Shown here in pieces: positions 7,769 through 62,764 of a stretch of DNA of 64,000 nt (the stretch's first letter is position 1; each line of letters starts with the position of its first letter). A program made the position numbers and the translations under genes. The notes under the pieces are model-generated. The model saw nothing but the letters and a program-made list of their open reading frames with translations. It searched no databases and was not told the DNA's origin. The stretch comes from an uncultured virus (IMG/VR IMGVR_UViG_3300037245_004243) (taxonomy: Duplodnaviria; Heunggongvirae; Uroviricota; Caudoviricetes), in IMG/VR virus record IMGVR_UViG_3300037245_004243, positions 32,001 to 96,000 of that record. One strand, 5' to 3'.

Positions 7769-10700
7769 TTATTTCCACCAGTGCACCGTGCCGGACACCA
7801 CGGTAAAATTTGTGAATCTTACGGTTGCTGTTGGTTGTGAATCAACATTTGCTACATGTAATGAAATTCGGCCATGTTTGTCATCAAAATCAGTGAATGT
7901 ATATGCGCCCTGTGTTACCCAACCGCTGCCGATATCATAATATTCTGTGATTATATTATTAACCTTTTTAATTCTATACTTTATCCCGGTCAATGTTGAA
8001 TCAGCATCGGTGTCCGTCGTTTTCCATGCTGTATCTTCAATAGCTAAAGATTGAAATTCATGTGCGCCGCCGCCATACCTGCGCCTGGCAATAACACCCG
8101 TGTCCCATAACGGATCATCGGGTTGTCCGATTTGATCTTGAAAAGTCAAAGACACGCACGCCATCCAAGAATTTGTGGCTGGACCTGCCGGAATATCTAA
8201 TTCAATTATTACTTCAAAATCTTCCGTGCTATCCAATTCGAAATTACTTAAAACGCCCTGGCGCTCGAGAGAAACATCACCCGAATCAACCGTGCATTGC
8301 AAATATCCACCGGTCTGTGTAACGTTTGCGGCCTGGCCGATTACTGTCCACCGGTCGGTATTTATTTCCGCGCCGGAAAAATCATCATCAGGTATAATAA
8401 CATCGTATGTCATTAAAGTATCGAACAAGGTATAATAAGTTGCTTTTAACCACGCCGCCGAACGATCGATATCAGAAAGCCTTATTTCCCCAAGTAGACC
8501 CACCATCCTTAAATCAGGAGTTGACCTTCCAGCAGCCGTAAGGGGCACATCAGTATTATCTATGTCGCCTGTATGAGCCGTCGGGCCACTTGCCAAATTC
8601 AATGCGCCGTCAACATATGTCCTAAGATCGATTTTATTGTATACACCAGCAACGTATTGCCAATCTGTGCCAATAATCGAATCGTTACTATGGCAGTTGT
8701 ATAAAGTGGTCGAAGTAAATACGCCAAATGTTATTCTGTCGTTAACACCATTTAAAAATAGATAGTAATTCCTGTTGCCGGGGTCTATATCCCGCGCCAT
8801 GTACATTGTACTGTTGGGAGCACCGGCATCACGTTTTCCAAGTGCCTCCAGGGTAAGTTTGCCAGTAATATCAAGGGAAACGTTATCACCGTAATTCATC
8901 CATTGGGTATTAAAATCCAGTGCCTTTGCACTTTTCACACCATCGACTAAGTCATTAGAAGCCATGCCGTCTTGTGGAGTTCCATCATTACCGAAAGATG
9001 TCGAATCAAGCATACAACCCGCGCCGCCTGAAGGGTCTTGCGCCATATGATGGACTGCTTTAAAATTGCTATCCCATACCGCTTGCGCCGGGGTGTCGCC
9101 GATATCACCGACATAAATATTATCGACAATACTTGCATCATAACGGAAATTAAGTATTGTATCTGATGCCGCCAGAATCGATGGTATTTTTACCCATAAC
9201 GATATTTGTTCATTAATCGAGTCAAAATTTTCAATTTCTATCTTGCATTGGGTACCATCGGCAGTCGTGACCGCTAACTTTTTTCTGTTTGGATGACCGT
9301 TTGGCCATTCAATAGAATCAGCAGTAACAAGCAAATCATCAACAAACCCATAATATGTCCCGGTCGTTTCCTGTTCAAAAAGTAGCTCAATAACAGCGTC
9401 TTCGGTATTGGAATCTTCTACTTCCAAACCGGCTGTCGAACCATTCCATTTCCAATCATCTGTATCCCAATAATAAACCTTGACACTTCCAGAAATCCGT
9501 GTTATTTTAAATTGCCCTATTGAATCATCCATATTGTCCCAAACGAAACCCGATTCAAGCCCATAAGCATAATAACCATTATTACCCGACTTACGGGATC
9601 GCGAAATAAACCCTATTGGTGCATCAGCCAGATTGCGGATTGCAAGCCGGGGCATGTAATGTTGTGCAGAAGTTGGGTCTGAGGACGCAATATTAAAATT
9701 CATTTGGACTTCAAAATCCCCGGAAAGAACAAATTTTGAATCGATAATTGTTTGACGATATCCTGAATTTTGATCAAAATTAAAATATAACGTATTATTT
9801 TGAATTTCTAACTCGCCAGACACGCCACTTATAAAAGTCCAAATTTCACCGTCTTCAACTAAATCACCATCAGCGCCGGTAAAATCGTCACCGGTCCATG
9901 CCAACGCATCAAATACTTCAGTTGTATTCCCGCTTGTAATACCTGAAGCCGTTGAAAGGTTGATCATAACCGGAAAGTCGGTAAGGTCTTCATCAATCTG
10001 TGAACTATCAATCGTAAGTTCAATTTGATTGGCAAAACCCTGGGTATAAGCCGCCGTATTAAAAGTCATCAGGGTATCAAAGCAAGTATGATAAGTTGCC
10101 TTTGCCCAAGCGGCAGACCGCTGTGCTTTTGAATACCGACATTCGAAAACCTTGCCGGTCATAAAATATTCTGATGAATGAAAGACTTGACCATGACCTA
10201 TCTTCAAATCATCTTCAGAATCATCAATACCATTTAAACAGGGTGTTGCAGCGTCAACTCTTGACCAGTCGGTCGGATTTGTATCATTCCAAAAGATATC
10301 AACATCGCTACCATCGCCAGGATAATAAAACCCGAAATAATTTTTTGCATCCACCGCATAATCAGGAACATCTTTTTTATAGTAAGTATAAATACTTAAT
10401 GATTGTTTAAATCCGAAAAGTGGTTCACCACTTCCGTTAACCTGGAATCCCCATCCATTTATATTAGCATCCATCTTATTAAAAATATTTTGATTACTTG
10501 ATGGGGTACCAGTCAATTTAAATACTGTTTCAACTGAAAAATCAGTAAGTAAACTCAAAGCGGCATTATCGACTATATATGCCTTTTCATTTGACCCACC
10601 AAAATTATATGCTATTCCATCTTCATCAATGACCAAGTCGCTGGACTCCATATTAACCACAGTCATATCATGATCATAGGAAGTCGAATCTTTTAATGTT

Positions 10701-13700
10701 CCTAAACTTGGGTCTTGGGCCATGTGGTAAACTGCAACAAAGTCGTCATCCCATACCGCTTGCGCAGAGGCCTCGCCGGTATCACCAACATTAGGATTGT
10801 CGGCATGATCGGAGTCAAAATATAGAAATAATTTAGTGTCGGTCCCCGCCAGAATTTCAGGCACCTTTACCCACAATTCAGCTTTTTCATTTGCATTATC
10901 CCAATGGATGATTTCCACCGGGCATTCACTTAAACCATCAGCACGGGTAACCGCTATCTTTTTACGGTTTGGATGTGTGCCTGGTGCCCATATAAGCGTG
11001 CCGGAATTTACAACAAAATTGTCGATAGTGCCCTGAACGTCTTCACCGCTTTCTTGTTCCCAATAAAACCTAAAATAAACGTCTTCCGTTGAACCCGGTC
11101 CATTATTTGCGACAATTATTCCCGCCGTATTCCCGTCCCATTCCCATTGACCGCCAGCAGTATCAGTCCAATAAAATGATCGTATCACACCGCTAATCCG
11201 AGTTAAACGTAATTTTCCGAAAGCATCAGCAGGGCCTTTATAAGCGCCCCCTTCATTTAAACCATATGCACGGTACTGATTAAGCGACGCACTTCGCACC
11301 CTTGCAATTTGGGCAATATTAACGTCATCGGAAACACGCATAGCTTGAAAAGATGGACAATAATGCGTGCCAGGTGGTTGTGTAAACTGATCGGCGGTAA
11401 AGTCCACGGATACATCGAAATCGCCCGTTGCCTGAAATTTGCCTATAATACGCGCTATTATTTGTGGACTTGCAATAGCCGACGCATCAAATTCGAATTT
11501 ATTATTCTGAATAGAAGTGACAGAATCGTCGTCTTCCACATCCCACAAATCAGTATCCGGTGACGCGCCGTCTTCACCGGTAAAATCGTCACCGGTATAT
11601 GCCAACGCATCAAATACTTCCGTTATATCGCCGTTTCCAATAGCTGAATCAGAAAGATTTATCATAACCGGAAAGTCGGTCAAGTCTTCATCAATATTTG
11701 ACTTATCGATTACAAGTTCAATCCTATTTGCGTAATCGAGAGCGCTGAGCGCATATGTTATCAGCGTATCAAAAAATGTATGATAAGTTGCTTTTAACCA
11801 CGCCGCCGAACGAATCATTTTTGATATTCTTATTTCACCGATTAGACCGTCAAATTCCCTATCACCACCATCCCTAATGCCTATTTTTGTGGTCGCTGGA
11901 GCATCAGAATCCCAAGTGCCAGAAGGTGCGGTCGATTCAACTTGATTACTGCCATCACCATTAAGATAAACTATTGGGTCATTATTAATTGAACTTTTAT
12001 CATGGGTAAACGCGCCATGATACCAGGTGTTTCCATCGGTTATTAATGCATCAGAATTATACCATTGACCGACGCCGCCGCTTGAATCCCTAACAACAAC
12101 AAGGCCGCTTGAATGTACAAGAAATGACCAACCATTGTTTGGTGAAACTGTTTTGTCTACAATTCGCCCGGAATTGTTTTGACCAAGATTATCAGCTTTA
12201 AATACCGATTCAACAGTCATTAAAGCTATATCATCAAGAATGGCGCCACTTCCAGCACTGAAGTATTCATCTGATCCGCTTAAATTCACCGCTTTTATAC
12301 TTTTTAGGCCATCAACTAAGTCTGGAGTGCCTGTGGCATCTGCATCCTGATTGTTGCCAGTACTTTCAGGAATTAAAATTGCATCTGTCATATGGTAAAC
12401 AGTAACAAAGTCAGAATCCCATACCGCTTGCGCCGGGGTGTCGCCGATATCACCAATATAATCTGTATTGTCCGCTTTGGTCGAATCATACAATAAATTT
12501 AAAACTGTATCGGATGCCGCCAATACAGATGGAATTTTTGCATGTAAAGAAGCCGTTTTGGTTGCCGCATTCCAATTGGCTATTTCAACATTATATTCGG
12601 TGTTCCTGCTCGAATTTTGAACCGAAATCTTTTTGCGGTTTGGGTCGGTTGCTGCTGGCCAAATTACATTACCCACCACAACCGCAAAATTGCTTAATTC
12701 AAAAGTCACGTTCACGGCATTCTGCTTACTAATCATGAAATTGACGTGACCATCTTCATTATCGAAATCGGTAAATGAATAGGTTTGTGATAACACCCAA
12801 CCGGACCCGGCATCATAATAGCAACTTATATCATTTCCTATTTTTACCTGTCTAAGTTTACCGGACATGGTCGTATTGACATCGGTATCGGTCGTTTTAA
12901 ATGAACCATCTTCAGCCGCTAATGATTGCCAAACATGACCACCATTACCTGAATTATAACTCCTTCGACTAAAAACTAATGTATCCCAAGCGCCGCCATA
13001 AGGGTCACCGGTTTGTTCTTTAAAATTTACCAACATATCAGCATAAAATGCATTTGTAGAAGGGGCAGTCATGGTAAAATCAACCGTTATTTCATAATCT
13101 TGACTTTGATCAAGTCGAAATTTACTATAACAACCATGTATTTCATTATCTGCACCGCCCGATAGCGCCCTGACCGTTAAGACATTATCTGATACAAACA
13201 CATTGCTGGCAATCCCAAATTTTGTCCAATTATCTAAATTAGAAAAATCATCGCCGGTCCATGCCAGGTCATCAAATAGCGCCGTTAAATCAGCATCATT
13301 AATTCCTGAAGCCGCTGAAAGGTTGATCATAACCGGGAAGTCGGTCAAGTCTTCATCAATCTGTGAACTATCAATCGTTAAAATAATTGGGTTATTAACA
13401 CTTTCAAAAACACTAATGCCCTTGTCAATAGCACTGGTTGCAGCGGTTACTATCGATGGTGAAGACACAAATTCAATTTCTTCTTGGGTACCAATATCAC
13501 TGATCGTGCCGGATACTATCGATGCGCTCGAGCCAAATTCCCTTTGTGCATTAGCATCAGATGAAATATCGGTCCCGATGGAAGGCGAAGATACAAAATA
13601 GGAAGATATTTCAATTATCGCCGTTATATCCGAAACGATATCAGCCTGGGCCGCAAAAGCCCAACCATAGTCAATTGTGCTACTTAAATATCCGGTCTGT

Positions 13701-14416
13701 ATATCAGCCTGGGATGCAAAAATGCGCTCAGCGAGCCCAACGCTAATGATCGAAGTTTGAATGGCCGGGGAAGATGTGGTCCCAACATAATATTCTATAT
13801 TTGGATCGGTAATATCCGAAACGATATCGGCACCGGATGCAAAACGTCCACCGAATATCACATCGCCGGTAATCGAGAATGTAATTGAAGGAGCAGAGAT
13901 AAAATGATATTGGCGCTCAAAATCCGAGCTTATATCCGAGCTAATCGAAGCCGCTGAAACGAAAAGATTTATTTTATAGATATCACCATCGATATCGGAG
14001 GAGATATCGGCCTGTGCCGCCAGCTCGCGCCGCGCATCAGCATCAGAAACAATCGCCGCGCGAATCACAGGTGAAGACACAAATAATTTTTCAGCTCGAA
14101 CGGTAATTTCAGCAATTGTTGAAACTATTGAAGCCGCTGAAACGAAAAGATTTGATTTATAAATATCGGTGTCGGCGCCGGACCCAATAATAGCACTCGA
14201 AGCAAAGTGTCGTTCAGCATTACCCTTGCCAACAATTCCCGTCACGATATTAGGCCGGGAATGAAAGTCTGGAGTTCCCAAACGACTGCTCGAGTTGTCC
14301 CAGGTTATCCTGGCCAAAACCAGAAAGGTACCGGGGCCACACCAGGAAGTTAAATCCTCGGTGATTTCAGTCTCTATGGCATCCCGTTTATAGCTGTTTT
14401 CAGGTATTATTCGCAT
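7769..14416 (-). CDS. giant virion-associated protein: N-terminal ~21-aa repeats, three DUF2341-like plus LamG/ConA-like modules, terminal lectin-like domain
   Basis: IDEDLTDFPVMINLS, AQAVWD..F..V.HM and RSAAW.KATY.T.FDTL each occur three times; LamG-like W...A...Y.(N/D)G...G..GEIR.S segments. Confidence 0.75.
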   Translation of the reverse strand: MRIIPENSYKRDAIETEITEDLTSWCGPGTFLVLARITWDNSSSRLGTPDFHSRPNIVTGIVGKGNAERHFASSAIIGSGADTDIYKSNLFVSAASIVSTIAEITVRAEKLFVSSPVIRAAIVSDADARRELAAQADISSDIDGDIYKINLFVSAASISSDISSDFERQYHFISAPSITFSITGDVIFGGRFASGADIVSDITDPNIEYYVGTTSSPAIQTSIISVGLAERIFASQADIQTGYLSSTIDYGWAFAAQADIVSDITAIIEISSYFVSSPSIGTDISSDANAQREFGSSASIVSGTISDIGTQEEIEFVSSPSIVTAATSAIDKGISVFESVNNPIILTIDSSQIDEDLTDFPVMINLSAASGINDADLTALFDDLAWTGDDFSNLDNWTKFGIASNVFVSDNVLTVRALSGGADNEIHGCYSKFRLDQSQDYEITVDFTMTAPSTNAFYADMLVNFKEQTGDPYGGAWDTLVFSRRSYNSGNGGHVWQSLAAEDGSFKTTDTDVNTTMSGKLRQVKIGNDISCYYDAGSGWVLSQTYSFTDFDNEDGHVNFMISKQNAVNVTFELSNFAVVVGNVIWPAATDPNRKKISVQNSSRNTEYNVEIANWNAATKTASLHAKIPSVLAASDTVLNLLYDSTKADNTDYIGDIGDTPAQAVWDSDFVTVYHMTDAILIPESTGNNQDADATGTPDLVDGLKSIKAVNLSGSDEYFSAGSGAILDDIALMTVESVFKADNLGQNNSGRIVDKTVSPNNGWSFLVHSSGLVVVRDSSGGVGQWYNSDALITDGNTWYHGAFTHDKSSINNDPIVYLNGDGSNQVESTAPSGTWDSDAPATTKIGIRDGGDREFDGLIGEIRISKMIRSAAWLKATYHTFFDTLITYALSALDYANRIELVIDKSNIDEDLTDFPVMINLSDSAIGNGDITEVFDALAYTGDDFTGEDGASPDTDLWDVEDDDSVTSIQNNKFEFDASAIASPQIIARIIGKFQATGDFDVSVDFTADQFTQPPGTHYCPSFQAMRVSDDVNIAQIARVRSASLNQYRAYGLNEGGAYKGPADAFGKLRLTRISGVIRSFYWTDTAGGQWEWDGNTAGIIVANNGPGSTEDVYFRFYWEQESGEDVQGTIDNFVVNSGTLIWAPGTHPNRKKIAVTRADGLSECPVEIIHWDNANEKAELWVKVPEILAGTDTKLFLYFDSDHADNPNVGDTGEASAQAVWDDDFVAVYHMAQDPSLGTLKDSTSYDHDMTVVNMESSDLVIDEDGIAYNFGGSNEKAYIVDNAALSLLTDFSVETVFKLTGTPSSNQNIFNKMDANINGWGFQVNGSGEPLFGFKQSLSIYTYYKKDVPDYAVDAKNYFGFYYPGDGSDVDIFWNDTNPTDWSRVDAATPCLNGIDDSEDDLKIGHGQVFHSSEYFMTGKVFECRYSKAQRSAAWAKATYHTCFDTLMTFNTAAYTQGFANQIELTIDSSQIDEDLTDFPVMINLSTASGITSGNTTEVFDALAWTGDDFTGADGDLVEDGEIWTFISGVSGELEIQNNTLYFNFDQNSGYRQTIIDSKFVLSGDFEVQMNFNIASSDPTSAQHYMPRLAIRNLADAPIGFISRSRKSGNNGYYAYGLESGFVWDNMDDSIGQFKITRISGSVKVYYWDTDDWKWNGSTAGLEVEDSNTEDAVIELLFEQETTGTYYGFVDDLLVTADSIEWPNGHPNRKKLAVTTADGTQCKIEIENFDSINEQISLWVKIPSILAASDTILNFRYDASIVDNIYVGDIGDTPAQAVWDSNFKAVHHMAQDPSGGAGCMLDSTSFGNDGTPQDGMASNDLVDGVKSAKALDFNTQWMNYGDNVSLDITGKLTLEALGKRDAGAPNSTMYMARDIDPGNRNYYLFLNGVNDRITFGVFTSTTLYNCHSNDSIIGTDWQYVAGVYNKIDLRTYVDGALNLASGPTAHTGDIDNTDVPLTAAGRSTPDLRMVGLLGEIRLSDIDRSAAWLKATYYTLFDTLMTYDVIIPDDDFSGAEINTDRWTVIGQAANVTQTGGYLQCTVDSGDVSLERQGVLSNFELDSTEDFEVIIELDIPAGPATNSWMACVSLTFQDQIGQPDDPLWDTGVIARRRYGGGAHEFQSLAIEDTAWKTTDTDADSTLTGIKYRIKKVNNIITEYYDIGSGWVTQGAYTFTDFDDKHGRISLHVANVDSQPTATVRFTNFTVVSGTVHWWK

Positions 14417-27330: not shown

Positions 27331-27359
27331 TTGACAAAGGTAGCATCCTGATATATAAT
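27331..27359 (+). promoter_or_regulatory. sigma70-type early promoter
   Basis: TTGACA, N17, TATAAT (perfect consensus). Confidence 0.85.
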
Positions 27360-27386: not shown

Positions 27387-27587
27387 ATGAAAAATAGAGA
27401 GCCGGAAATACATGCCGAGTTAAAGGTACCTTATAGCCCATTTTCTCAAATATACCCATTGCCGGTAGGCACGAAATGTATTATTACAAGTGAAGAGGCC
27501 GACAGATACGCCGTCAAATTTCCTGATGTGATCGGTTATTCAGGCACATTCCACGTCAAAAAATATCAGATTACAGCCCAAAAGTAA
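27387..27587 (+). CDS. hypothetical SH3-like small protein
   Basis: AGGAG RBS; beta-rich LPVGT.C.I...YAVKF. Confidence 0.6.
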   Translation: MKNREPEIHAELKVPYSPFSQIYPLPVGTKCIITSEEADRYAVKFPDVIGYSGTFHVKKYQITAQK

Positions 27588-27638
27588 ACAATTGTGGGAC
27601 TTATGGCCAGATAATTTAAAATAGGGAGATTAAATATC

Positions 27639-27998
27639 ATGAAATGCACATTATGTTTTACAGAAATTGCCGGGATTAATGAAGCAATCGATGCCGATTG
27701 GATTCCTAATTTCTTTGTTGGGGCAACCGAGCATGGCCCGGTTTGTCCATCTTGCCAGCAAAAGTATCTTTGGTTAGATTCAATCGATGGCGAGTTTGAT
27801 TTGTCAACTGAATTTGTGAACATCTTTTTAAAATCAGCATCTTATATGGATTCCGGTTTTAAGGGCAAATCATATATCGGATTTTGTGGGGACATCGAAG
27901 TTTCGGAAAAATGCGAGATATGCACGCCGCAATGTGAAAAAAATGGAATGAAACCGCTTGATGGATATGTAAACACTGCACCGGATTATTCAATTTAA
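27639..27998 (+). CDS. hypothetical Cys-rich protein
   Basis: CTLC..VCPSC..CEIC. Confidence 0.65.
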   Translation: MKCTLCFTEIAGINEAIDADWIPNFFVGATEHGPVCPSCQQKYLWLDSIDGEFDLSTEFVNIFLKSASYMDSGFKGKSYIGFCGDIEVSEKCEICTPQCEKNGMKPLDGYVNTAPDYSI

Positions 27999-28012
27999 GG
28001 GAGATAAATATC

Positions 28013-28891
28013 ATGGGTAAAATAGGGACATTAGAACAAATTTATGCCAGGAAACAGGCTAAGAAAAGCAAGGAAGCCATTCGGTTGGCGCAAACCATAT
28101 TAGACTCAACCCACAAACACTGCACCGAATTATTGGAAGCAGGGGTAATACCCGACGCAACGCGCCATTATAAGATCGGTGACCGGGTCCGATATGGCGC
28201 CTGGGATTGGAGTGCCGTCCTCGCCGTTTACGAAAACGGGAAATATTATAAGCTGGTCACACAAACTCGCCACATCGGTCGCAATATTCCGGACTCTTCC
28301 GAACTAAGAATTCATTATCTACCTTGGTTTAATTTCGTTTCTTACCAGAGCCCTGAAGAGATTTTTGAAATCGATTCCCTTATCGAGGGCGATGATATAT
28401 TTTTCAGTTATTCCCAACGGGATTTGAGTTCCTTAATAAATATGTATTTCAACAAGCATGGGATTGATTTCGAGCCGGAATATCAACGAGGTAATGTCTG
28501 GTCGCTTGAAAAAAAGGTCGAGCTAATAGATTCTATCTTTAAAAATGTGGATATAGGAAAATTTGCCGTCATCAGCAGACCCTGGGGACCGGACGGCAAC
28601 AAGCCACTCACACCCAAATTGTGGGAGATGCTCGACGGGAAGCAGCGCCTAACGGCCATCATCGATTTTTTTACTAACCAGTTTTCCTATAAAGGTAAAT
28701 ATTACGATGACTTGTCACCGCACGATAGATACCATTTCAAACATTATTCAGCGGCGATTGCCGAAACAGAGAATTTGACCAAGGCACAAAAGTACCGTTA
28801 CTTTTTAAAATTGAATACAACCGGCACACCCCAAGATCCCGAACATATGAAAAAGGTCACCGATATGCTTGCCAAGGAGATGAAAAAATGA
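28013..28891 (+). CDS. DUF262 (GmrS/ParB-like) domain protein
   Basis: PEYQRG.VW...K..LIDSI, LDGKQRLTAI..F, YFLKLN..GTP. Confidence 0.85.
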   Translation: MGKIGTLEQIYARKQAKKSKEAIRLAQTILDSTHKHCTELLEAGVIPDATRHYKIGDRVRYGAWDWSAVLAVYENGKYYKLVTQTRHIGRNIPDSSELRIHYLPWFNFVSYQSPEEIFEIDSLIEGDDIFFSYSQRDLSSLINMYFNKHGIDFEPEYQRGNVWSLEKKVELIDSIFKNVDIGKFAVISRPWGPDGNKPLTPKLWEMLDGKQRLTAIIDFFTNQFSYKGKYYDDLSPHDRYHFKHYSAAIAETENLTKAQKYRYFLKLNTTGTPQDPEHMKKVTDMLAKEMKK

Positions 28892-29067
28892 GTGAAGACT
28901 TAGGATTATTTCAAGTAGTATGCCCGGTTTGCTCGCGAGCCTTTGACCTGGATGAAACGGTTATTCAGAAAGTATGGTCTCAATCATTTAAGGAAGGTTT
29001 AAAAGTTATCTGCCCGGCCTGTGGGTGTCAACGATGCTCAGATTTGCCGGATGACGAAGAGGAATAA
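28888..29067 (+). CDS. 59-aa zinc-ribbon protein (not in ORF track)
   Basis: ATGA overlap; VCPVC...ICPACG. Confidence 0.65.
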   Translation: MSEDLGLFQVVCPVCSRAFDLDETVIQKVWSQSFKEGLKVICPACGCQRCSDLPDDEEE

Positions 29068-29070
29068 AAA

Positions 29071-29271
29071 ATGGAAAGACGATCATTTATAAAAATCATT
29101 GCTGGAATTGCAGTCGCGCCATTAAGTTTTTTGAAAGTCGCCGCCGCTTCCACGGTCCCGGTATCAGTTGTTAAGGTCAGAGCTAAACCCCGGTTATTAA
29201 AATGTCGATGGACATTGGAATGTCAAAGGGATTTGGAAGTAATGGGATTGGAGGAAAAAATATGCTGCTGA
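29071..29271 (+). CDS. twin-arginine-leader peptide carrying a gp23-like segment
   Basis: MERRSFIK plus hydrophobic stretch; VRAKPRLLKCRWTLECQRDL vs gp23 VTAKTRKLKAKWTEELEQDL. Confidence 0.7.
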   Translation: MERRSFIKIIAGIAVAPLSFLKVAAASTVPVSVVKVRAKPRLLKCRWTLECQRDLEVMGLEEKICC

Positions 29272-29534
29272 AAAGACGATCATTTCTAAAATTTCTCGGT
29301 ATAGTTGCCACTGCTCCCCTGAGTTTAATTCCAACCGCCGCAAAAGAGGCCAGTCGGTTAGGGTTAGATCGGTTAGATCGGTTAATCTATATGCCTGATA
29401 TTAATGGATATGTTTATTGTCCCTATATTCCTTTGACGGTTACTAAAACATACAGGATGGGAAAAACATACAGCATGGGAAGCACCTGGACTGAAGAATT
29501 GGATAAAGATTTACCCAAAATATTTGGAGTTTAA
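29262..29534 (+). CDS. twin-arginine-leader peptide carrying two gp23-like segments
   Basis: GGAGG RBS; MLLKRRSFLK; GYVYCPYIPL vs gp23 GIYYAPYIPL; WTEELDKDL vs WTEELEQDL. Confidence 0.7.
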   Translation: MLLKRRSFLKFLGIVATAPLSLIPTAAKEASRLGLDRLDRLIYMPDINGYVYCPYIPLTVTKTYRMGKTYSMGSTWTEELDKDLPKIFGV

Positions 29535-29745
29535 ATTGGAAAAATTTATTAGAGAAAACGGGCTGCAGAAACGGAATGGATTAGACGAGTGGTATAGCCG
29601 CGACGGGAAGACCCGGCTTGTTAAATTGGGCGCCCGGTATCGCCTGGATGTCAAAATCAAAAATTGGTCCGCATTTCATTCCGATTATATTATCGGTCAC
29701 CGGGAGCGTGAATTCAAAAGCGTTGTCGGTCGACAACGCTATTAG
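29524..29745 (+). CDS. hypothetical protein
   Basis: 73-aa ORF, last of the + strand island. Confidence 0.45.
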   Translation: MEFKLEKFIRENGLQKRNGLDEWYSRDGKTRLVKLGARYRLDVKIKNWSAFHSDYIIGHREREFKSVVGRQRY

Positions 29746-31130
29746 AATTTTATTTCGGTCCAGGGCTTGATCGTTGTTTTTTCTCTGATGTTTGCGCCAC
29801 CTGTTCGAACGATTTCTTTAAAGAATGCCCGTGTCCATTCGCCAAGCTGACCAACCCGGCCAGCAACCCATTTTCTAAATGCTTCGGCAAATGCCTCAGC
29901 CGGATTTGTATTTCCGTAATCGGTAATAAATTCTAATGTGACACGTTCACCAGAATGTTGCTTTTGCATCCAACCCGTGTATATCGCTAATTTTTTCATA
30001 AACCCGCGCTCGCTATCTTGATTATAATCGTATGAAGCATATTTATCTTGCACACTCCAGATAGGGGTCCGGTCGGCTAAATTTATGAAAACGGTTTTTA
30101 GTGTCGGGTCATCAATATTCGCCCTGGCATCAGCAAGAATGTCTTTCCGCTTCTTGAAATGGCCATATTTAGTATCGAAATATCGATCACAAAATTTCTG
30201 GATCATCTCGTCATTCATATCGATCATGCCGCTATTGATTTTATCTTCCCATGCTTTTTGTGCGCGATTGGGTACCCGCCTGAACCAATATCGATGGCCG
30301 ATTTCATGGACGAGCGTACTGTCATTTAAATTATCGCTCATGCCCAACGGAAAAATATAAAGGGTGTCATCTTCTTTGCGATATGCGCCACCGATCATCC
30401 CGCCGCTTATTCCAGAAACCGTGCTTGGTTTGAAATTGATTTCAACGGTAAAATCTGTTAACGCACTTTTAAGACCGGCCTTTTTTATCGCTCTGACGGC
30501 AACCGGCAAAGATTTTAAAAACTTTTTTATCCATTTTGTGGCGTAATCCGCATGATTAACGTTTTTTACTAAAACATTAACGCCGTGAACATTGACCTGA
30601 TGATCCGGAATGATTTCGCTTATTTTATCCGCTTCATAAACGATTAGCTCATCAATGGCATCGAATGCCGCCTTAAATGCCCTGGTGTATCGGGCAATGT
30701 TTGTTTTTCTTGGATCTGATCCTATGTTGGTGTCTAAAGCCCACGGCGCCCAAAGGTGCTTATCGGTTTTATAATCATAATCCATAGGGAAAAGTGACAT
30801 AATCGAAGTATGTGCCGCCCAACCCTTTTCTCGGACCTTGACCTGATAAATGTTTTCGCCACCTTTTCGGTCGTCGTCATAAGGAAGGTGACTTCGGTCT
30901 AATAATTCATTAAAAACCCACCGCTCCCAATTTGTATTGAATAATTGCCAGGCATTCTTTACCTTCATGAACACCTTCAACGCCCTGTCTGAATCATCAG
31001 TTTTCAGGGACCGATAAAGCTTTGTCATTCGACGCAGATCTTTTTTCCACTGTGTCGCCTTTTTTCTAAAATCGGCAACACGTTTTTCGTAACCCGCGCC
31101 TTCAACTATTTCGGTCCAGGACTTAATCAT
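29742..31130 (-). CDS. zincin-like metallopeptidase, putative internal head protein
   Basis: GGAY...LYI, LVHEIGH, ITDYG.TNPAEAFAEAF; begins MIKSWTEIVE|G. Confidence 0.7.
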   Translation of the reverse strand: MIKSWTEIVEGAGYEKRVADFRKKATQWKKDLRRMTKLYRSLKTDDSDRALKVFMKVKNAWQLFNTNWERWVFNELLDRSHLPYDDDRKGGENIYQVKVREKGWAAHTSIMSLFPMDYDYKTDKHLWAPWALDTNIGSDPRKTNIARYTRAFKAAFDAIDELIVYEADKISEIIPDHQVNVHGVNVLVKNVNHADYATKWIKKFLKSLPVAVRAIKKAGLKSALTDFTVEINFKPSTVSGISGGMIGGAYRKEDDTLYIFPLGMSDNLNDSTLVHEIGHRYWFRRVPNRAQKAWEDKINSGMIDMNDEMIQKFCDRYFDTKYGHFKKRKDILADARANIDDPTLKTVFINLADRTPIWSVQDKYASYDYNQDSERGFMKKLAIYTGWMQKQHSGERVTLEFITDYGNTNPAEAFAEAFRKWVAGRVGQLGEWTRAFFKEIVRTGGANIREKTTIKPWTEIKF

Positions 31131-31437
31131 CGGTATCATCGTCCTTTGCGTCCTTTGTGACCGCCCCTATATTGGGAACAGAAATGTAATCGGACATTAT
31201 CCGGGGTCCGAATATTTCAATTTTCTTCTTTATCATTCGATATCTTGATTGATCTTCCATACCTTGCCAGTCCCAACTTTCATCATTCCAGCAAAAATCT
31301 TTTGTAAACTTGGTTTTCTGTGAAATATCACGCATTTGCCGGGTTTTGCACTTTGGGCATTTTAATTGAGCCTCTGCCGGTCTTAACAGAGGCTCGAATT
31401 TAGTTTTACATTTCGGACAACCAAATTTATAAGACAC
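31123..31437 (-). CDS. FmdB-like zinc-ribbon protein
   Basis: Y.F.CPKC..KFE......CPKC. Confidence 0.6.
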   Translation of the reverse strand: MSYKFGCPKCKTKFEPLLRPAEAQLKCPKCKTRQMRDISQKTKFTKDFCWNDESWDWQGMEDQSRYRMIKKKIEIFGPRIMSDYISVPNIGAVTKDAKDDDTDD

Positions 31438-57017: not shown

Positions 57018-57463
57018 ATCACTATTTTTATAATTTTTGGATTGCGGACAACATAAATCATTTTGCCCATTTCATCAGTCTGGAGCATATCAATTTTGTT
57101 ATCGTTTAAATATTTTTCTATTGCCACGGCTCGCTGTTTGGAATTGCTCATAGAAAAATCTTTCATCAGCGATTTGCCTATGGCTTCGATTTTATCACCG
57201 AGTTCATTTCCCTCATATGAAATATCCCCGCTCGGATCTAAGAGCGGATTTTTAGGTCTCAATTCAACCTTGATTGAAACTGGTCCCCATCGGGTGTTTG
57301 GTTTATCCGTGAAATAAACCCCATTTCCATACAACCGCGCCCGTGTAATTTTCTTTTGCAATTTAAATCCAGTTGCCCGTATACCATCTGCGACCTTTTT
57401 CTCGACATTATGATATGTAACAAAATTTGTTTTTTCAGTTAAAATTTGATGAAAACTTTTCAT
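57014..57463 (-). CDS. CTS-like leader plus ART-like (H-Y type) fold
   Basis: MKSFHQILTE|K; TYH......I...GF.....LYG.GVYFT ... L...NPL ... YVV.NP..IK. Confidence 0.65.
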   Translation of the reverse strand: MKSFHQILTEKTNFVTYHNVEKKVADGIRATGFKLQKKITRARLYGNGVYFTDKPNTRWGPVSIKVELRPKNPLLDPSGDISYEGNELGDKIEAIGKSLMKDFSMSNSKQRAVAIEKYLNDNKIDMLQTDEMGKMIYVVRNPKIIKIVI

Positions 57464-58683
57464 ATTACAATATCCCCCGCCGCGCCCGGTAGATTATCAT
57501 CTAAATTTCTTGCATTTTTCGCCAGCATAATGTTCTGTGAATATTCGAATGCATTTGATATTGTATGCTTTATCGATAAAATAATCCAGCTCCCATCCAG
57601 AGAGGTATTCGGCTCAGTTAAATTATCCTGATTGGGATATTCAACCTTTAAAATGTCGCCTACTTTTCTATCCAGGGTGCCCAGGGTCCGCACCATCAAA
57701 CGATTATTATGCAGCAAGGTTACCATTTGAGCTGATCGGATTTGCGCCACATCGTGATTATGGTATTCCGGACCCACTTTGTTATTAGCAGAAAACAATT
57801 CAGATGAAAACAATAGGTTCCGGCCATTTGTTAAAAAGTTGGCCGCATTATCTGAATATGTTGCTTCGGTTTTAACGAATCCATATCGGTCGTTGTCAGC
57901 CAGTTTATAAAGGGTCTTGCCGAACAACCCCCGGCTTGCATCGATGTTGATATCAAAATATGCGTCTTGCTGGAAAAACTGCATATCATCAACTCGAAAA
58001 GACATCTCCCGTTTTGTTAAATATCGCAGCTCCTCGACAGGTTCCTGGGCGAGCAAATACGAAAGAGGCACAAAATGAAACCCTGCCATCGATTCAAAAA
58101 ATAAATAATCCATCTCGCCCTGGGCTGACACGGCATTTTTTGTCATAAAATCGATAACCGCCGAGCCCTGGCGATAATCACAAAAATAATCGACGACTTC
58201 GGAAGTATATTCTGCTGCAATAGTTTTTTCATGCGATTCATAAATATCCCGCACAATCGACTCAACGACATTTTCCGGATAATCAGAATATTTCCGGCTA
58301 ATCTGATTTAGGATATCAACTTGCTTTTCCGGAGAGTAAAAGTAACACTCTAAAATTTTGGATTTTGCTGATGTTTTTGTTATATCGAAATCCCTATTAA
58401 TTTTATATAACCGAAAGGAATAAACCCTCTGAATATTTGTTGCCCGTTCCTGAAAAGAAATCCTGATTTCTTCATTGCCGGAAAGAGACTCATTTTTAAA
58501 CATATCATAAGTGTCGGATATAAATACCTTGCCGGACATAAAATTTTCAAAGATAGATTCAAATAATTGTAAGCCCAAAAATATCTCGATTAAATCTATC
58601 CGTTTTCCTGCAATGGTAATCAAATCCAAAGAGAGGACTTTTATTGTTTCGAAGACTGGATTTTCAGTTCTAATGGATGCCAT
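57460..58683 (-). CDS. baseplate hub protein (gp27/VgrG-N-like)
   Basis: L.ESIF...MSG...I.D, G.E.I.ISF, YLFFE...GFHF, G....VG, G.W.I..I.H.I; lies between gp53 and gp5. Confidence 0.75.
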   Translation of the reverse strand: MASIRTENPVFETIKVLSLDLITIAGKRIDLIEIFLGLQLFESIFENFMSGKVFISDTYDMFKNESLSGNEEIRISFQERATNIQRVYSFRLYKINRDFDITKTSAKSKILECYFYSPEKQVDILNQISRKYSDYPENVVESIVRDIYESHEKTIAAEYTSEVVDYFCDYRQGSAVIDFMTKNAVSAQGEMDYLFFESMAGFHFVPLSYLLAQEPVEELRYLTKREMSFRVDDMQFFQQDAYFDINIDASRGLFGKTLYKLADNDRYGFVKTEATYSDNAANFLTNGRNLLFSSELFSANNKVGPEYHNHDVAQIRSAQMVTLLHNNRLMVRTLGTLDRKVGDILKVEYPNQDNLTEPNTSLDGSWIILSIKHTISNAFEYSQNIMLAKNARNLDDNLPGAAGDIVI

Positions 58684-58684
58684 T

Positions 58685-59110
58685 TTATTCCGGTTTGTTT
58701 TTCAAAACATCAGACAAAAATTCATTAACAAATTCAGATTTTAAAACTTTGATTTTCCGTTTAACATCGTTCTCTGCCTGGAGGAGATCATAATTAACTC
58801 CAAATATGGTCAAATCCAAGGACCCTTCACTTGCAATGGTCATCTCCCGCGCGATGATCTGGAGCACAGCATCCGGCAAAGGTAAATCAAAAATCATATC
58901 TCGGATGTCATTAATAATTACCAATACCCAATAAAGCTCAGTATCCGCATATTCATCGAAGGCCACACTTTCTAAAGTCTCGTGTTCCATCAACGTTTTT
59001 GTATACAGATATCTGTCTTCCAGGGCAGCAGTCAAAACATATTTATTAAAAATATTCCTGACTGTAAAATCCCCGGTTTGCATCAATGGCATTAAATCAA
59101 AATATTTCAT
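58685..59110 (-). CDS. gp53: baseplate wedge subunit
   Basis: YF...P, E..E.VA...Y....LYWV....N.I.D...D.PL, END.KR.IKVL. Confidence 0.88.
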   Translation of the reverse strand: MKYFDLMPLMQTGDFTVRNIFNKYVLTAALEDRYLYTKTLMEHETLESVAFDEYADTELYWVLVIINDIRDMIFDLPLPDAVLQIIAREMTIASEGSLDLTIFGVNYDLLQAENDVKRKIKVLKSEFVNEFLSDVLKNKPE

Positions 59111-59889
59111 TATATACCTAAGTTATATTCGTTTCTGCTGACGCGCTCGAGTTCTTTTAAAGTTATATCTAATGCGACAGAAGTGGGTGCACCATCCCGG
59201 TAGAAAGACTGTATATCATCAGGGAGGTAATTTACTGAAAGATTCGTGATAACTGATGCTTTAAAAATTAATAATTTATCGAATAAATTGCCACTTTCGC
59301 CGGATGGAAAATGTACTTTTACCATAAAAAACGATGGATAATCGATTACGTTTCCATAAAAATCTGCAATGCTTTGTTTTTTGAAAAACTCAATAACTTC
59401 CGCGAGACGTTGACTGTCCTTTTGACCTTTCGGTAGCAGTTTAAAAGAAAACTGCCATTCCCTAAAATCGGTTAAGCCAAATGCTAAAGACTGAAGGTCA
59501 TTGGTAGTTGAACCTTTTCTGGTTTCCGCAAATTTTGCTATACTGGTTGAGAATCCACGTATGAAATCGATCCCACTTTTTATACCCAATTGAAGCAAAT
59601 TCTTTGCACCGAGGCCTTCCTGCGTTTCCCAGTTAACACTTTGCTGGTCATTTATACTTTCGGCCAATGGTAAAGATACAGAGCCGCGCGATGTGTTCCT
59701 GATAAAAATAGAAGAGTTCTTTTTTGCGTTTCCATCTATATGCCATTTATATGCAGTAAACTGAATATAAGGAACATTTGGGATGTTATTGGGATCACTA
59801 CTCGCAGTGGTATACCCAACTCTGTTTAAATTAGTTGGAAACACTAATCGAGGTGTCGTGTTTTTATTATTATAAGTTTTATTTTCCAT
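59110..59889 (-). CDS. gp48: baseplate tail-tube cap
   Basis: L.FP, V.LP....I.D....W, F....FR...FSFKL.P....S..L..I..FK, YP..F.V, VNY.P, G.P....L...L.ELE. Confidence 0.85.
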   Translation of the reverse strand: MENKTYNNKNTTPRLVFPTNLNRVGYTTASSDPNNIPNVPYIQFTAYKWHIDGNAKKNSSIFIRNTSRGSVSLPLAESINDQQSVNWETQEGLGAKNLLQLGIKSGIDFIRGFSTSIAKFAETRKGSTTNDLQSLAFGLTDFREWQFSFKLLPKGQKDSQRLAEVIEFFKKQSIADFYGNVIDYPSFFMVKVHFPSGESGNLFDKLLIFKASVITNLSVNYLPDDIQSFYRDGAPTSVALDITLKELERVSRNEYNLGI

Positions 59890-60000: not shown

Positions 60001-61365
60001 TTATTCAGGCAGGTTCTGAACGTCGATTGCATGGTAATAATCACCCGCGCCGAACAAGTTGTCAGCCACTCCATACCGAGTATGGAAGAATGTTCTTGGC
60101 TGGCCGTCTTCCTCGCCATAACCCTTTTTGATCTGAAGGGGAATATAAGGTGCGTAATAAATACCGGCATCGATCTCATTCGGACCCTTGTAACCAAGGT
60201 GCATTTTGTCGTCTGTGGCATAGATGTCAACGTAACAATCCATGTTCAGGGCCTTGCCAGCATAGCTGGTTTTAACCGGATCGACATTTTCTGTGGTCAG
60301 TTTGCCAGCCGCCTCGATTACGCTGAGGACGCCAGGGGAAACAATACAGAAGTTAGCCATACCGCGCCTATTGGTCACAGCAAGTTTTCTTTTCTGACGG
60401 GCAATGTGCGCCATCAGGGTCTGGTATTTTTCCATTTCCCATCTACCGGTCTCGCCAGCAGTGGTAGCATCGAAATCCCAGGATGTGGATGTTCCGGCTT
60501 TGGCCGCGATCAGGGCGATAAACTCGCGATTCATTTCCACGACGATCTCATCGGAGGCGATGGAGGTCAGAAGACGCTCGGCATTCATATTATGGATGGC
60601 CATAAGATCTTGCTCGAGTTCCTCAGTCCACTTGGCTTTCAGCTTTCTGGTCTTGGCCGTTACGGTCGCGGTCTCGATGTTGAAACCAACTTCCTTCATG
60701 GTCGTTGACAGATCTTCACCGGTTGCGGTGCTCATGGTTCCGGTATAGTTGCTGAAGATGATTTTCTGCAGGGCCTCATTGTCGTAAGATACAACAACCG
60801 AAGCCTCCTTTGCGTTAAAAGCGGCTGCATTGTCGATCTCGCCGGTATAAGCAATGTTCTTCGTGCCGGAGGTGATCTCGCAAAGCATGTTAGCGCCTTC
60901 GATGTGGCGAACTTTACCAGTCATCTCGTCGGCTGTAACGGAAAAATCGCCGCCAACGGTAAAGTCAGCAGTGGCTGCTTCATCCAAGGTGAAGATGATA
61001 CCAACTGCTCTGGTAATCGGGTTGACAGTGTCATTGTGAAAAGCCGCGCGAAGGGCGAAAATCAGGCCGGTCGGGCCGCTCATGGGCTGCGTTCCAAAAA
61101 TTGACATTCCGATCAGGGCTGGCATAACACGCCTCAGCATCGGGATCAGGATGGGCGAAAAGTCGCCAGTACCGGCAGCAGCGTTGGTCCGCTCTTTCAG
61201 CTCTTCAGTATTTTCAAGCAGTTGGGCGACAGTAGCATAATCCATATTGTCCAGTTTCGGACAAGTGGAGACAAAAGACTCCCATTTGCCGGTACCTTCC
61301 AGCAAGGGCATCCATTTGTCAAGCACTTCCTGCTCAACCGTAAAAGTTTCATACATTTTTTCCAT
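60001..61365 (-). CDS. gp23: major capsid protein
   Basis: PILIPMLRR..P, GTQPMSGPTGLIFALR, V.AKTRKLKA.WT.EL.QDL.A.H, E.NRE, AGIYYAPYIPL, QP...F.TRYG. Confidence 0.98.
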   Translation of the reverse strand: MEKMYETFTVEQEVLDKWMPLLEGTGKWESFVSTCPKLDNMDYATVAQLLENTEELKERTNAAAGTGDFSPILIPMLRRVMPALIGMSIFGTQPMSGPTGLIFALRAAFHNDTVNPITRAVGIIFTLDEAATADFTVGGDFSVTADEMTGKVRHIEGANMLCEITSGTKNIAYTGEIDNAAAFNAKEASVVVSYDNEALQKIIFSNYTGTMSTATGEDLSTTMKEVGFNIETATVTAKTRKLKAKWTEELEQDLMAIHNMNAERLLTSIASDEIVVEMNREFIALIAAKAGTSTSWDFDATTAGETGRWEMEKYQTLMAHIARQKRKLAVTNRRGMANFCIVSPGVLSVIEAAGKLTTENVDPVKTSYAGKALNMDCYVDIYATDDKMHLGYKGPNEIDAGIYYAPYIPLQIKKGYGEEDGQPRTFFHTRYGVADNLFGAGDYYHAIDVQNLPE

Positions 61366-61438: not shown

Positions 61439-62164
61439 TTACGGTAAATAAATGTCGATTTGGGAATCACCATCGTTCTCATCGTTCTCGTCATGGTTGA
61501 CGCCCTCATTCAATGAATCGCCTTTGTTCTTGTTGGGGTCATCATTCTCGTCATTGGCGTCTTCGACTACCTTGGCGATCAAGATTTTGGTTTTCTCTTC
61601 GAAAGCCTCGACGTCCTCGGCATCAACACCTTCCAGCAGGTCCAGGACCTTTTCGGCATCGGTATCGGTAACATCAGATTCGGAAATCAGGCGTTTGAAC
61701 ATCAAAGCCTTTTCATATTCCAGAATCTGCTTTTGACTTTCAATGCCGCTGTTGATGGAATCATTCAGCTTTTCGTTGACCTTGGTAACTTTGCCTTCCA
61801 GATCGGCAACAACATCGGTCTCGCTTTCGGGAACAACGATGTATTGCTCTTTGAGCAGGGCCATCAGGCCTTTCATAACGGCCTCAGAAACGTTGACCTT
61901 GATATCAGATTCGATTGCCGGGATGTTCTCCTCGATGAATTCATCGACGGCCACTTTCGAGTATTCGGAAAGTTTGTCGACCAATTCAACCTTGAATTTG
62001 GCCATTTCGGTTTTATTGGATTCCTCAAGCTCGGTCTCTTTCTCAACGAGCGCCACTTTGACTTTCTCGTTAAGGGCCGAATCAAACAGGGTGCCGATTT
62101 CCGTGATGGCTTCATCAGATACCTGATCCTTGAAGTATTTTTCCAAGAGTTTCTTTAAATCCAT
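61439..62164 (-). CDS. gp22: prohead core scaffold
   Basis: I.T.F..A...KV, L..KL..Y...AV.EF..EN..AIE..IK....E..M.GL..L..E..I.VP; located between gp21 and gp23. Confidence 0.88.
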   Translation of the reverse strand: MDLKKLLEKYFKDQVSDEAITEIGTLFDSALNEKVKVALVEKETELEESNKTEMAKFKVELVDKLSEYSKVAVDEFIEENIPAIESDIKVNVSEAVMKGLMALLKEQYIVVPESETDVVADLEGKVTKVNEKLNDSINSGIESQKQILEYEKALMFKRLISESDVTDTDAEKVLDLLEGVDAEDVEAFEEKTKILIAKVVEDANDENDDPNKNKGDSLNEGVNHDENDENDGDSQIDIYLP

Positions 62165-62254: not shown

Positions 62255-62764
62255 TTATTTCATTTCAATTTCGACCCTAAAACCTTTACCATCTTTTTCG
62301 GTACCGATATGTTTGATTTTGTCCATATCACCCTTCAGCGCTTCTTTATACCGTTTGGTTAATTCCTCGGAAGTCGTCCCTTCACCCACTTTATAGGTCA
62401 TGGTCACGAGTTTACCTTTGCGTTTCATCACGGGTTTAATTGGATCATCGGTACCATCGATCATAGAATCGAGAACGTGCTTGATGTTTTCAGACACCAT
62501 TGAACCAATGCTCAGGACTTTGCCGCCCTTCTGCATTATACGACCGGCAATTTTGTCCCATCCATTAAGAATGGTAACCGTGCTGTCATTATCCCATTTG
62601 AAATCTCGGTCAACCTTCATTTTACCGGCAGCAAACAAACTGTTAAGACGGCCTTTATCGTTACCGGAAACGGTAAGTTTCCGAGCTTTTTTCTCAGCGA
62701 GATTTTTTTGATGCTCCATGAGGTCTTCATATAGTTCATCAAATTTAATTGCTTTGTACGACAT
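62255..62764 (-). CDS. hypothetical protein inserted between gp21 and gp22, probably head-internal
   Basis: IKFDELYE leader; LAE and VSE candidate gp21 sites. Confidence 0.55.
   Translation of the reverse strand: MSYKAIKFDELYEDLMEHQKNLAEKKARKLTVSGNDKGRLNSLFAAGKMKVDRDFKWDNDSTVTILNGWDKIAGRIMQKGGKVLSIGSMVSENIKHVLDSMIDGTDDPIKPVMKRKGKLVTMTYKVGEGTTSEELTKRYKEALKGDMDKIKHIGTEKDGKGFRVEIEMK

Follow-up and report, generated by a model that had tools for sequence, protein, structure and literature searches.

A tandem pair of phage mini-genes joining a twin-arginine-type leader to segments from gp23, the major capsid protein, and their possible role as a capsid-edge mimic

Bases 32001–96000 of the 129.5-kb linear virus record IMGVR_UViG_3300037245_004243 (IMG/VR, Caudoviricetes; estimated to be 74% complete) form the stretch of 64,000 nucleotides analysed here, hereafter the window. 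A T4-type head module occupies its 60–64 kb region, with a prohead protease (62764–63645), a scaffold protein (61439–62164) and the major capsid protein gp23 (60001–61365, minus strand), and about 30 kb away, on the opposite strand, lie two small open reading frames (ORFs), A and B, each composed of a leader of the twin-arginine translocation (Tat) type followed by one or two short segments, M1 and M2, that resemble gp23. It is near certain that A and B are genuine genes that arose by tandem duplication, and that they belong to a conserved, rapidly evolving accessory family of T4-type phages, in which a Tat leader is joined to one to three segments of the gp23 P domain. As to their role, the explanation preferred here, tentatively and with somewhat less than even confidence, is that the mature part is an early-made mimic of the contact surface at the edge of the gp23 capsomer, delivered by the Tat pathway. 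The locus contains the following features, lengths being given in amino acids (aa) and positions counted from the first base of the window:

29059–29063, plus strand: ribosome-binding site (RBS) of ORF A, GAGGA, read from the sequence
29071–29271, plus strand: ORF A, 66 aa, Tat-type leader and M2, starting MERRSFIK
29071–29151, plus strand: leader of ORF A (aa 1–27), with RRSFIK, 13 uncharged residues and AAAS; TAT_signal 19.3 bits, E 0.001
29161–29235, plus strand: segment M2 of ORF A (aa 31–55), from BLASTP, Pfam and phrog_138 (major head protein, E 0.026)
29250–29255, plus strand: RBS of ORF B, GGAGGA, within the 3' end of ORF A, read from the sequence
29262–29534, plus strand: ORF B, 90 aa, Tat-type leader, M1 and M2, starting MLLKRRSFLK
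29262–29351, plus strand: leader of ORF B (aa 1–30), with RRSFLK and 17 uncharged residues; TAT_signal 15.1 bits, E 0.023
29362–29384, plus strand: in-frame tandem repeat of 9 nt in 2.6 copies (RLGLDRLDRL), lying in ORF B's linker
29406–29453, plus strand: segment M1 of ORF B (aa 49–64, GYVYCPYIPLTVTKTY), homologous to gp23 401–416 (P-domain strand running into the P loop)
29445–29481, plus strand: in-frame tandem repeat of 18 nt in 2.1 copies (KTYRMG/KTYSMG), at the M1–M2 joint of ORF B
29460–29522, plus strand: segment M2 of ORF B (aa 67–87, WTEELDKDL), homologous to gp23 237–257, from BLASTP and profiles

ORFs A and B overlap by 10 nt. An earlier sequence-only reading of this DNA had placed both frames and their RBSs here, with gp23 some 30 kb off on the other strand and the segments of B reversed relative to gp23, and all of this is borne out, M1 (gp23 401–416) preceding M2 (gp23 237–257). 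The twin-arginine motif stands at residues 3–8 of A (RRSFIK) and 5–10 of B (RRSFLK), and these are the only two such leaders in the whole record. Their hydrophobic (h-) regions, of 13 and 17 uncharged residues, reach best 12-residue Kyte–Doolittle means of 2.24 and 2.06 and are probably too short to span a membrane stably, and they are followed by VAAAS in A and PTAAKEAS in B, putative c-regions for a signal peptidase, several other members of the family having no A-x-A-type site at all. Both TAT_signal scores (19.3 and 15.1 bits) fall below the curated cut-off of 22.7 bits. The leaders are like known Tat signal peptides (PF10518/TIGR01409) in their RRxF[LI]K motif near the N-terminus, their short, moderately hydrophobic, proline-containing h-region and their alanine-rich end, but they are carried by phage genes and precede a mature cargo of 35–60 residues of capsid-derived strand and helix, without any cofactor domain. 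Motif, h-region, the Pfam and NCBIfam matches of family members and their Tat-signal neighbours in the ESM Atlas agree with the twin-arginine leader that had been proposed. A third short tandem repeat lies at 29215–29249, and the presence of three such repeats within A and B suggests that slippage-driven remodelling of these genes is still under way.

The protein that the mature parts resemble is identified by the following features:

60001–61365, minus strand: gp23, major capsid protein, 454 aa; Pfam Gp23 E 2.3e-87, T4 gp23 structures E 1.6e-44
60595–60678, minus strand: gp23 aa 230–257, counterpart of M2, from the BLASTP matches of A and B
60118–60195, minus strand: gp23 aa 391–416, counterpart of M1, from BLASTP and a profile match

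In pairwise BLASTP comparisons, residues 31–55 of A match gp23 230–254 (11 identities over 25 positions, E 3e-5), residues 67–87 of B match gp23 237–257 (10 over 21, E 2e-4), and residues 49–64 of B match gp23 401–416 (9 over 16, E 3e-4). The observed score was reached in none of 2000 shuffles for A and for each half of B, and in two of 2000 for B as a whole, and gp23 is the best non-self match of both mature parts among the 339 frames of at least 60 aa. With 66 and 90 aa, A and B are not full-length capsid proteins of the HK97 fold, their matches to gp23 spanning 16–32 residues. At the level of the family described below, hhalign comparison with a gp23 profile places M1 on gp23 391–416 (probability 98%, E 1.5e-13) and M2 on gp23 234–254 (probability 96.5%, E 9e-10), while the profile of the family leader finds no match in the gp23 profile (E 0.25). 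Because these family-level matches fall at the same two gp23 sites, the homology of the segments can be taken as settled, and M1 and M2 almost certainly descend from gp23. The third codon positions of identical residues agree in only 4 of 11, 4 of 10 and 2 of 9 cases between the segments of A or B and those of gp23, so that identity is not raised at the DNA level, which indicates an old likeness kept at the protein level and excludes a recent DNA copy of gp23 or gene conversion from it. Two further candidates were rejected: a derivation of the leader from the RR...QPM region of gp23, prompted by a 12.7-bit BLAST row (the profile, at E 0.25, aligned elsewhere), and a match of the family profile to the DPPY motif of Dam methylases (E about 0.7–1), which was judged to be chance.

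When all proteins were searched with B using HMMER, two small homologues of the same build were found (P0005 and P0006), together with two repeat proteins of about 2000 aa (P0004, E 1e-7, and P0007, E 4e-4) that match the hairpin in B and were judged spurious. Successive profile searches then gave 20 and finally 46 small proteins; adding A, P0016 and a member from Rhizobium phages brings the tally to 49, from which P0049 and P0050, the C-termini of capsid proteins cut by contig ends, were set aside, leaving 47. A twin-arginine (RR) leader is present in 40 of these 47, with the form RRxF[LIF][KRQT] in 34 of the 40, and the remaining seven have none, among them P0013, P0016 and P0034, which have complete N-termini and the same segments. 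Among the first 20 members, 15 match Pfam Gp23 (best E 6.8e-9), 11 match TAT_signal (PF10518) at E ≤0.1 (best 2.2e-5), and four match TIGR01409 of NCBIfam. The members are about 30–45% identical, with frames, leaders and motifs intact across the 46 homologues, and the leader is the most conserved part of the family. Behind it the modules vary: M1 takes the form (YKG..DA)GY[IV]YCPYIP(L) and M2 the form K.RKLK..WT.E...DL, and some members add a third strand (F.TRYG) or a VQPM segment. The order is M1–M2 in B and P0006, and M2–M1, as in gp23 itself, in P0030, P0052 and P0033. Scans of A, B and ten members against PHROG matched only phrog_138 (major head protein) and two families of unknown function, phrog_13936 and phrog_33011.

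Members also occur in cultured phages, ten Rhizobium phage records carrying one, annotated as hypothetical; an example is QIG71900.1, from the RHph_TM2_3B group. In the related phage L007, a single mini-gene bearing M1 and M2 (P0006) stands at the syntenic place, and A and B are therefore regarded as a tandem duplication. Compared with P0006, A is 32% and B 44% identical, whereas four neighbouring genes are 52–82% identical to their L007 counterparts and a fifth, of 119 aa, 35%. Scans aimed at further loci with their DNA gave nothing: a leader-plus-motif pattern had no match in viral and genome contigs, none of 145 candidates from a family profile scan of metagenome contigs was confirmed, and the 30 matches of an LKCRWTLE pattern scan were all due to chance.

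Could the likeness to gp23 nevertheless be fortuitous, or the segments be neutral debris of recombination with capsid genes? The E-values of A and B alone at genome scale (0.10 to 1.4), the recent in-frame tandem repeats in B and the existence of other doubtful short capsid-like ORFs, such as the ORF C described below, speak for such an origin. On the other side stand the shuffled controls that never reached the scores of A or of either half of B, the two family-profile matches to gp23, the 46 homologues with intact architecture, the syntenic position kept in L007 and the presence of the gene in ten cultured phage records, so that this explanation is extremely unlikely and already largely refuted. 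The sequence-only reading had likewise argued against a decaying gene copy, and had called for alignment with gp23 under shuffled controls and for a search for similar ORFs in other large phages; the controls, the profile matches and a conserved family, syntenic in L007, uphold it.

Small ORFs made of capsid fragments are found in the absence of a leader as well. The YCPYIP motif occurs in leaderless small ORFs of three loci (L021, L041 and L071), and leaderless gp23-fragment ORFs are seen in two other contigs (L113, 1402–1668, and L111, 568–912, both on the minus strand), the examples including one ORF of 89 aa and one frame of 115 aa with gp23's RR..VMP..GIQPM segment. In the same record, outside the window, ORF C (L006:1501–1671, that is, 122952–123122 of the record, plus strand) encodes 56 aa, its start overlapping the stop of the upstream gene (ATGA); its N-terminus is M1-like (11 of 18 residues identical to gp23 392–409, E 0.002 at genome scale), it ends in a hydrophobic tail and has no RR leader, and its nearest match in IMG/VR, at 57% over 22 aa, comes from a different phage's gp23 (L114) and surpasses the resident gp23 in closeness. 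The status of ORF C is doubtful. Building small ORFs from capsid fragments may be a habit of large phages that is wider than the Tat-leader family.

What do the two segments correspond to in the capsid itself? In the predicted structure of the window's gp23, a strand (225–245) is followed by a short acidic helix (248–258) and the spine helix (262–288), and a hairpin is formed by residues 402–416 and 423–435, the strand and helix blocks that cover the counterparts of M1 and M2 having a predicted local distance difference test (pLDDT) score of about 78–90. Invariant columns among 33 aligned gp23 sequences include W246, E249 and D253 in the M2 region, and Y404, P406, Y407, I408 and P409 in the M1 region, the latter being a biased observation because the set was picked with the M1 motif. 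T4 numbering was mapped through the alignment of the window's gp23 with T4 gp23, and this map agrees with nine residues named in PMC9546572 (H282, M284, D285, D287, A268, A275, A455, T457 and R460). According to that study, T4 capsomers are joined around the quasi-threefold axes through contacts of the P loop and through charge contacts that a short acidic helix of the P domain makes with basic strands of the P domain; of the mutations that alter head length, A268V and A275T lie close to this helix and T457A, R460C and G461S in the P loop, and a change that bypasses gp31 (A455V) lies in the P-domain sheet (PMC9546572). By alignment, M2 spans A268 and A275, and M1 spans A455 and runs into T457, R460 and G461. 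M1 is thus the strand that ends in YxPYIPL and leads into the P loop, and M2 a basic strand with the acidic short helix WTxExxxDL, helix 248–258 of the model probably being the short acidic P-domain helix described in PMC9546572. The residues kept in the mini-proteins are those that gp23 uses at the capsomer edge, which argues that capsid-like contacts matter and favours mimicry of the interface.

The preferred explanation can be laid out as a series of steps. We infer that the mini-protein would be made early from a host-type promoter, and that its mature part would bind whatever normally docks on the capsomer-edge surface of gp23, the likeliest partners being either gp23 capsomers from a second T4-type phage in the same cell or something else that partners the P domain. 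The docking contact would thereby be obstructed or misdirected, and the Tat leader would carry the mimic to or across the inner membrane.

This last step raises the main difficulty for such a mimic. A working Tat leader would place it in the periplasm, whereas heads assemble in the cytoplasm, so that under this model the mimic would have to do its work ahead of export or at the membrane; the leader is the main tension for every cytoplasmic model. At genome scale, moreover, with 2963 frames, the E-values of the individual matches are weak (0.10 for A, 1.0 and 1.4 for B), the Pfam Gp23 (PF07068) scores of A (15.2 bits) and B (10.1 bits) lie under the curated cut-off of 24.4 bits, and B alone is predicted to fold with low confidence (pLDDT 62). 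The M1 motif does not follow the resident capsid either: YCPYIP is found in the gp23 of the nearest relative (L001), whereas the window phage's own gp23 has YYAPYIPL, and the Rhizobium-phage member carries GMFYCPYIP where its own capsid has LVYAPYMPL. YCPYIP is also the commonest motif in 50 full-length gp23 genes, but these comparison genes were retrieved with that pattern, so comparisons of M1 are biased. Co-folding of gp23 with residues 41–90 of B gave a score of 0.00 and is used neither for nor against any explanation.

The mismatch of M1 also bears on whose capsid is imitated. An exact search for GY[IVM]YCPYIP in IMG/VR returned 70 loci, of which 66 are gp23 genes of other T4-type lineages (full-length or cut by contig ends) and four are small ORFs. 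For the M2 of B, with WTEEL, the score is 52 with its own gp23 and 53 with that of L001, compared with a median of 35 for the 50 other gp23s, and A carries WTLE, the majority type of gp23. The signature retained by the family is thus a generic gp23 one, and of the two paralogues it is B that tracks its own clade. The proposal that both proteins imitate the phage's own capsid therefore holds in part: it stands for the WTEEL of B, and falls for YCPYIP, which is generic (own gp23 YAPYIP) and mismatched in the Rhizobium-phage member.

One way around the topological conflict, which is distinctly unlikely, is that the mimic folds in the cytoplasm, where it would grip rival capsomers or a capsid sensor of the host, and that Tat then drags the pair to the translocon or, as a hitchhiker, out of the cytoplasm, the leader in this case being the mechanism itself and more than an address. 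The partner would thus be gone by the time the phage makes its late gp23. A and B would then cover two epitope variants, A the common WTLE and B the own-clade WTEEL.

Capsid recognition by the host has to be considered in its own right. The sequence-only reading had suggested early-expressed, membrane-tethered decoys that titrate a capsid sensor. On this view an early fragment would occupy a sensor of short gp23 motifs, so that the later flood of gp23 would trigger no abortive infection. The family is accessory, fast-evolving, duplicated, modular and probably early, traits that are common in counter-defence genes, and the segments that it carries are invariant columns of gp23. P0018 and P0051 moreover add the VQPM/HPM..PTG segment of gp23, whose position, counted from the alignment with T4 gp23, we take to be the stretch of the T4 protein known as the Gol peptide, sensed by Lit. 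A and B themselves hold M1 and M2 and have no VQPM segment, no defence model of PADLOC matches A, B or P0006 at E ≤0.01, and the decoy has no known partner. A 2026 preprint describes Lit and CapRel as recognising the capsid protein by short sequence motifs (10.64898/2026.01.04.697583), which suits a decoy, yet a fragment bearing the epitope could equally trigger the sensor. Known capsid sensors are cytoplasmic, and the Tat leader would export the fragment; with the capsid-like part in the periplasm, a membrane-tethered decoy is a poor fit, and a decoy of any kind appears unlikely.

Taking the leader at face value leads to another possibility, that of an early periplasmic or membrane protein with no part in capsid recognition, acting for example in superinfection exclusion, lysis timing or envelope modification, whose likeness to gp23 would merely record the origin of a small beta-hairpin. 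The leader is indeed the best-conserved part of the family, the named neighbours in the ESM Atlas are Tat-exported proteins, and the two cysteines that flank the hairpin tip of P0010 and P0023 would suit a disulfide outside the cytoplasm. Small proteins made early for the periplasm (Sp, Imm and RI) are known from T4 too, and the mini-proteins are like them in being small and probably early, in having an N-terminal export or anchor signal and in lying in variable regions of T4-type genomes, but PHROG scans of A, B and ten members detected no similarity to these proteins, and to our knowledge none of them is derived from a capsid. The residues kept are exactly those that gp23 itself holds invariant (in M2 W, E and D-L, in M1 YxPYIP), a pattern with no easy explanation if capsid-like contacts are irrelevant. 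Of the 47 family proteins, seven have no RR leader, at least three of them with complete N-termini and the same segments, and leaderless small ORFs bear the motif in L021, L041 and L071. On balance, a periplasmic role unrelated to the capsid is rather unlikely.

The timing assumed for the mini-proteins comes from the operon in which they lie, whose other features are:

27331–27359, plus strand: consensus sigma-70-type promoter TTGACA-17-TATAAT (12 of 12 positions), ahead of the operon 27387–29745
28013–28891, plus strand: gene of 292 aa with a GmrSD_N/DUF262-type domain (Pfam PF03235, E 7e-17), 63% identical in L007
28888–29067, plus strand: gene of 59 aa, four-cysteine and zinc-ribbon-like (weak zinc-ribbon matches), just 5' of ORF A, 52% identical in L007
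29536–29745, plus strand: last gene of the operon, 69 aa, TTG start, function unknown, 78% identical in L007
29719–29740, no strand assigned: GC-rich 9-bp stem-loop between convergent genes, candidate terminator from a consensus scan

Across the record, 25 sites match the promoter consensus at 11 or more of 12 positions (six of them perfectly), compared with 0–12 in 20 shuffled versions, and the plus strand holds 23 of the 25, a strong strand bias. In the window, the genes for head and baseplate lie on the minus strand. The operon is accordingly of an early type to judge from its promoter, and would be transcribed early by the host polymerase, which agrees with the early-island position given to A and B in the sequence-only reading. 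For TATAAATA, the late-promoter motif of T4, the window shows no enrichment (nine found, 5.5 expected), so late promoters here would be of another kind. In PADLOC, the gene at 28013–28891 is matched by NsnA (E 2.8e-16) and PD-T4-2_A (E 5.6e-11), so that the phage has a defence-type domain in this early-type operon, while the last gene (29536–29745) has no match in Pfam, PHROG or PADLOC. L007 has the same order of GmrSD_N-type gene, zinc-ribbon gene, mini-gene and a conserved ORF of 72 aa, and no close relatives of the genes that flank A and B were found in IMG/VR.

This context bears on a further explanation, in which the mini-proteins would help the assembly of the phage's own head, for example as a membrane-targeted nucleator or as a cap against premature sticking of gp23. 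T4 heads start on the inner membrane, and the M2 of B follows the WTEEL variant of its own clade. The segments include A455, the T4 site whose mutation bypasses the co-chaperonin gp31 (PMC9546572), and no gene of the Cpn10 type was found in the record, nor one of the TatA type. The early-type operon that holds A and B is a long way from the head module (60–64 kb), the number of gene copies differs between L007, with one, and this phage, with two, and both A and B outpace in their evolution four of five neighbouring genes that were compared. Genes for head assembly are as a rule late, single-copy and conserved, and a role in own-head assembly is considered very unlikely.

Several observations concern the wider surroundings. 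Convergent with the operon, an ORF of 465 aa (29742–31139, minus strand) has a metalloprotease-type HEIGH (HExxH) motif and a weak PHROG peptidase match (E 0.0068), an unrelated ORF of 141 aa taking its place in L007. Downstream of gp23, two ORFs of 258 and 406 aa (57460–59889, minus strand) have no Pfam match, and a very large ORF of 2215 aa extends over 7769–14416 (minus strand). The 129.5-kb record yielded no second capsid paralogue of the gp24 kind, and no isolate gp23 more than 34% identical to that of the window was found.

How do these proteins compare with known systems? Like the gp23/gp24 paralogues (PF07068), the mini-proteins show the same invariant residues in M1 and M2 and a clear descent from gp23, but gp24 is a full-length shell protein of the HK97 fold, whereas they are P-domain pieces of 16–32 residues each, sometimes in swapped order, with an added export leader. 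The capsid-derived restriction factors of animals, Fv1 and enJS56A1, likewise reuse a piece of a viral capsid gene against related viruses through imitation of assembly or capsid contacts, but these are cytoplasmic products of host genes derived from Gag, whereas here the gene is in the virus itself and has a bacterial export signal. CpmA and CpmB, the capsid redirectors of Staphylococcus aureus pathogenicity islands (SaPIs), and DSAD1, a phage protein that inhibits the tail-tube sensor DSR2, are likewise small and either act on a phage structural protein's surface or compete for it; unlike the mini-proteins, they are satellite-encoded or aimed at a defined sensor. We know of none among them that is a sequence fragment of the structural protein it targets, or that has an export signal. 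No family in Pfam, NCBIfam, PHROG (known function) or PADLOC covers the mini-proteins, and topical literature searches, with supplements outside their scope, returned no description of proteins that join a leader to capsid segments. The claim to novelty rests on this architecture and on there being no family or paper that describes it, and not on function.

Since cultured Rhizobium phages carry a member of the family, the question of its role is directly testable. Should the mini-proteins be mimics of the capsid interface, they would be the first phage-encoded case known to us of a virus that turns pieces of the shell protein it encodes into a small effector, as animal hosts do with Gag-derived genes. 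They would then offer, in the form of a short and defined peptide, a handle on the contacts at the capsomer edge by which head size is set in T4-type phages, and possibly one on the way cells or rival phages read capsid motifs.

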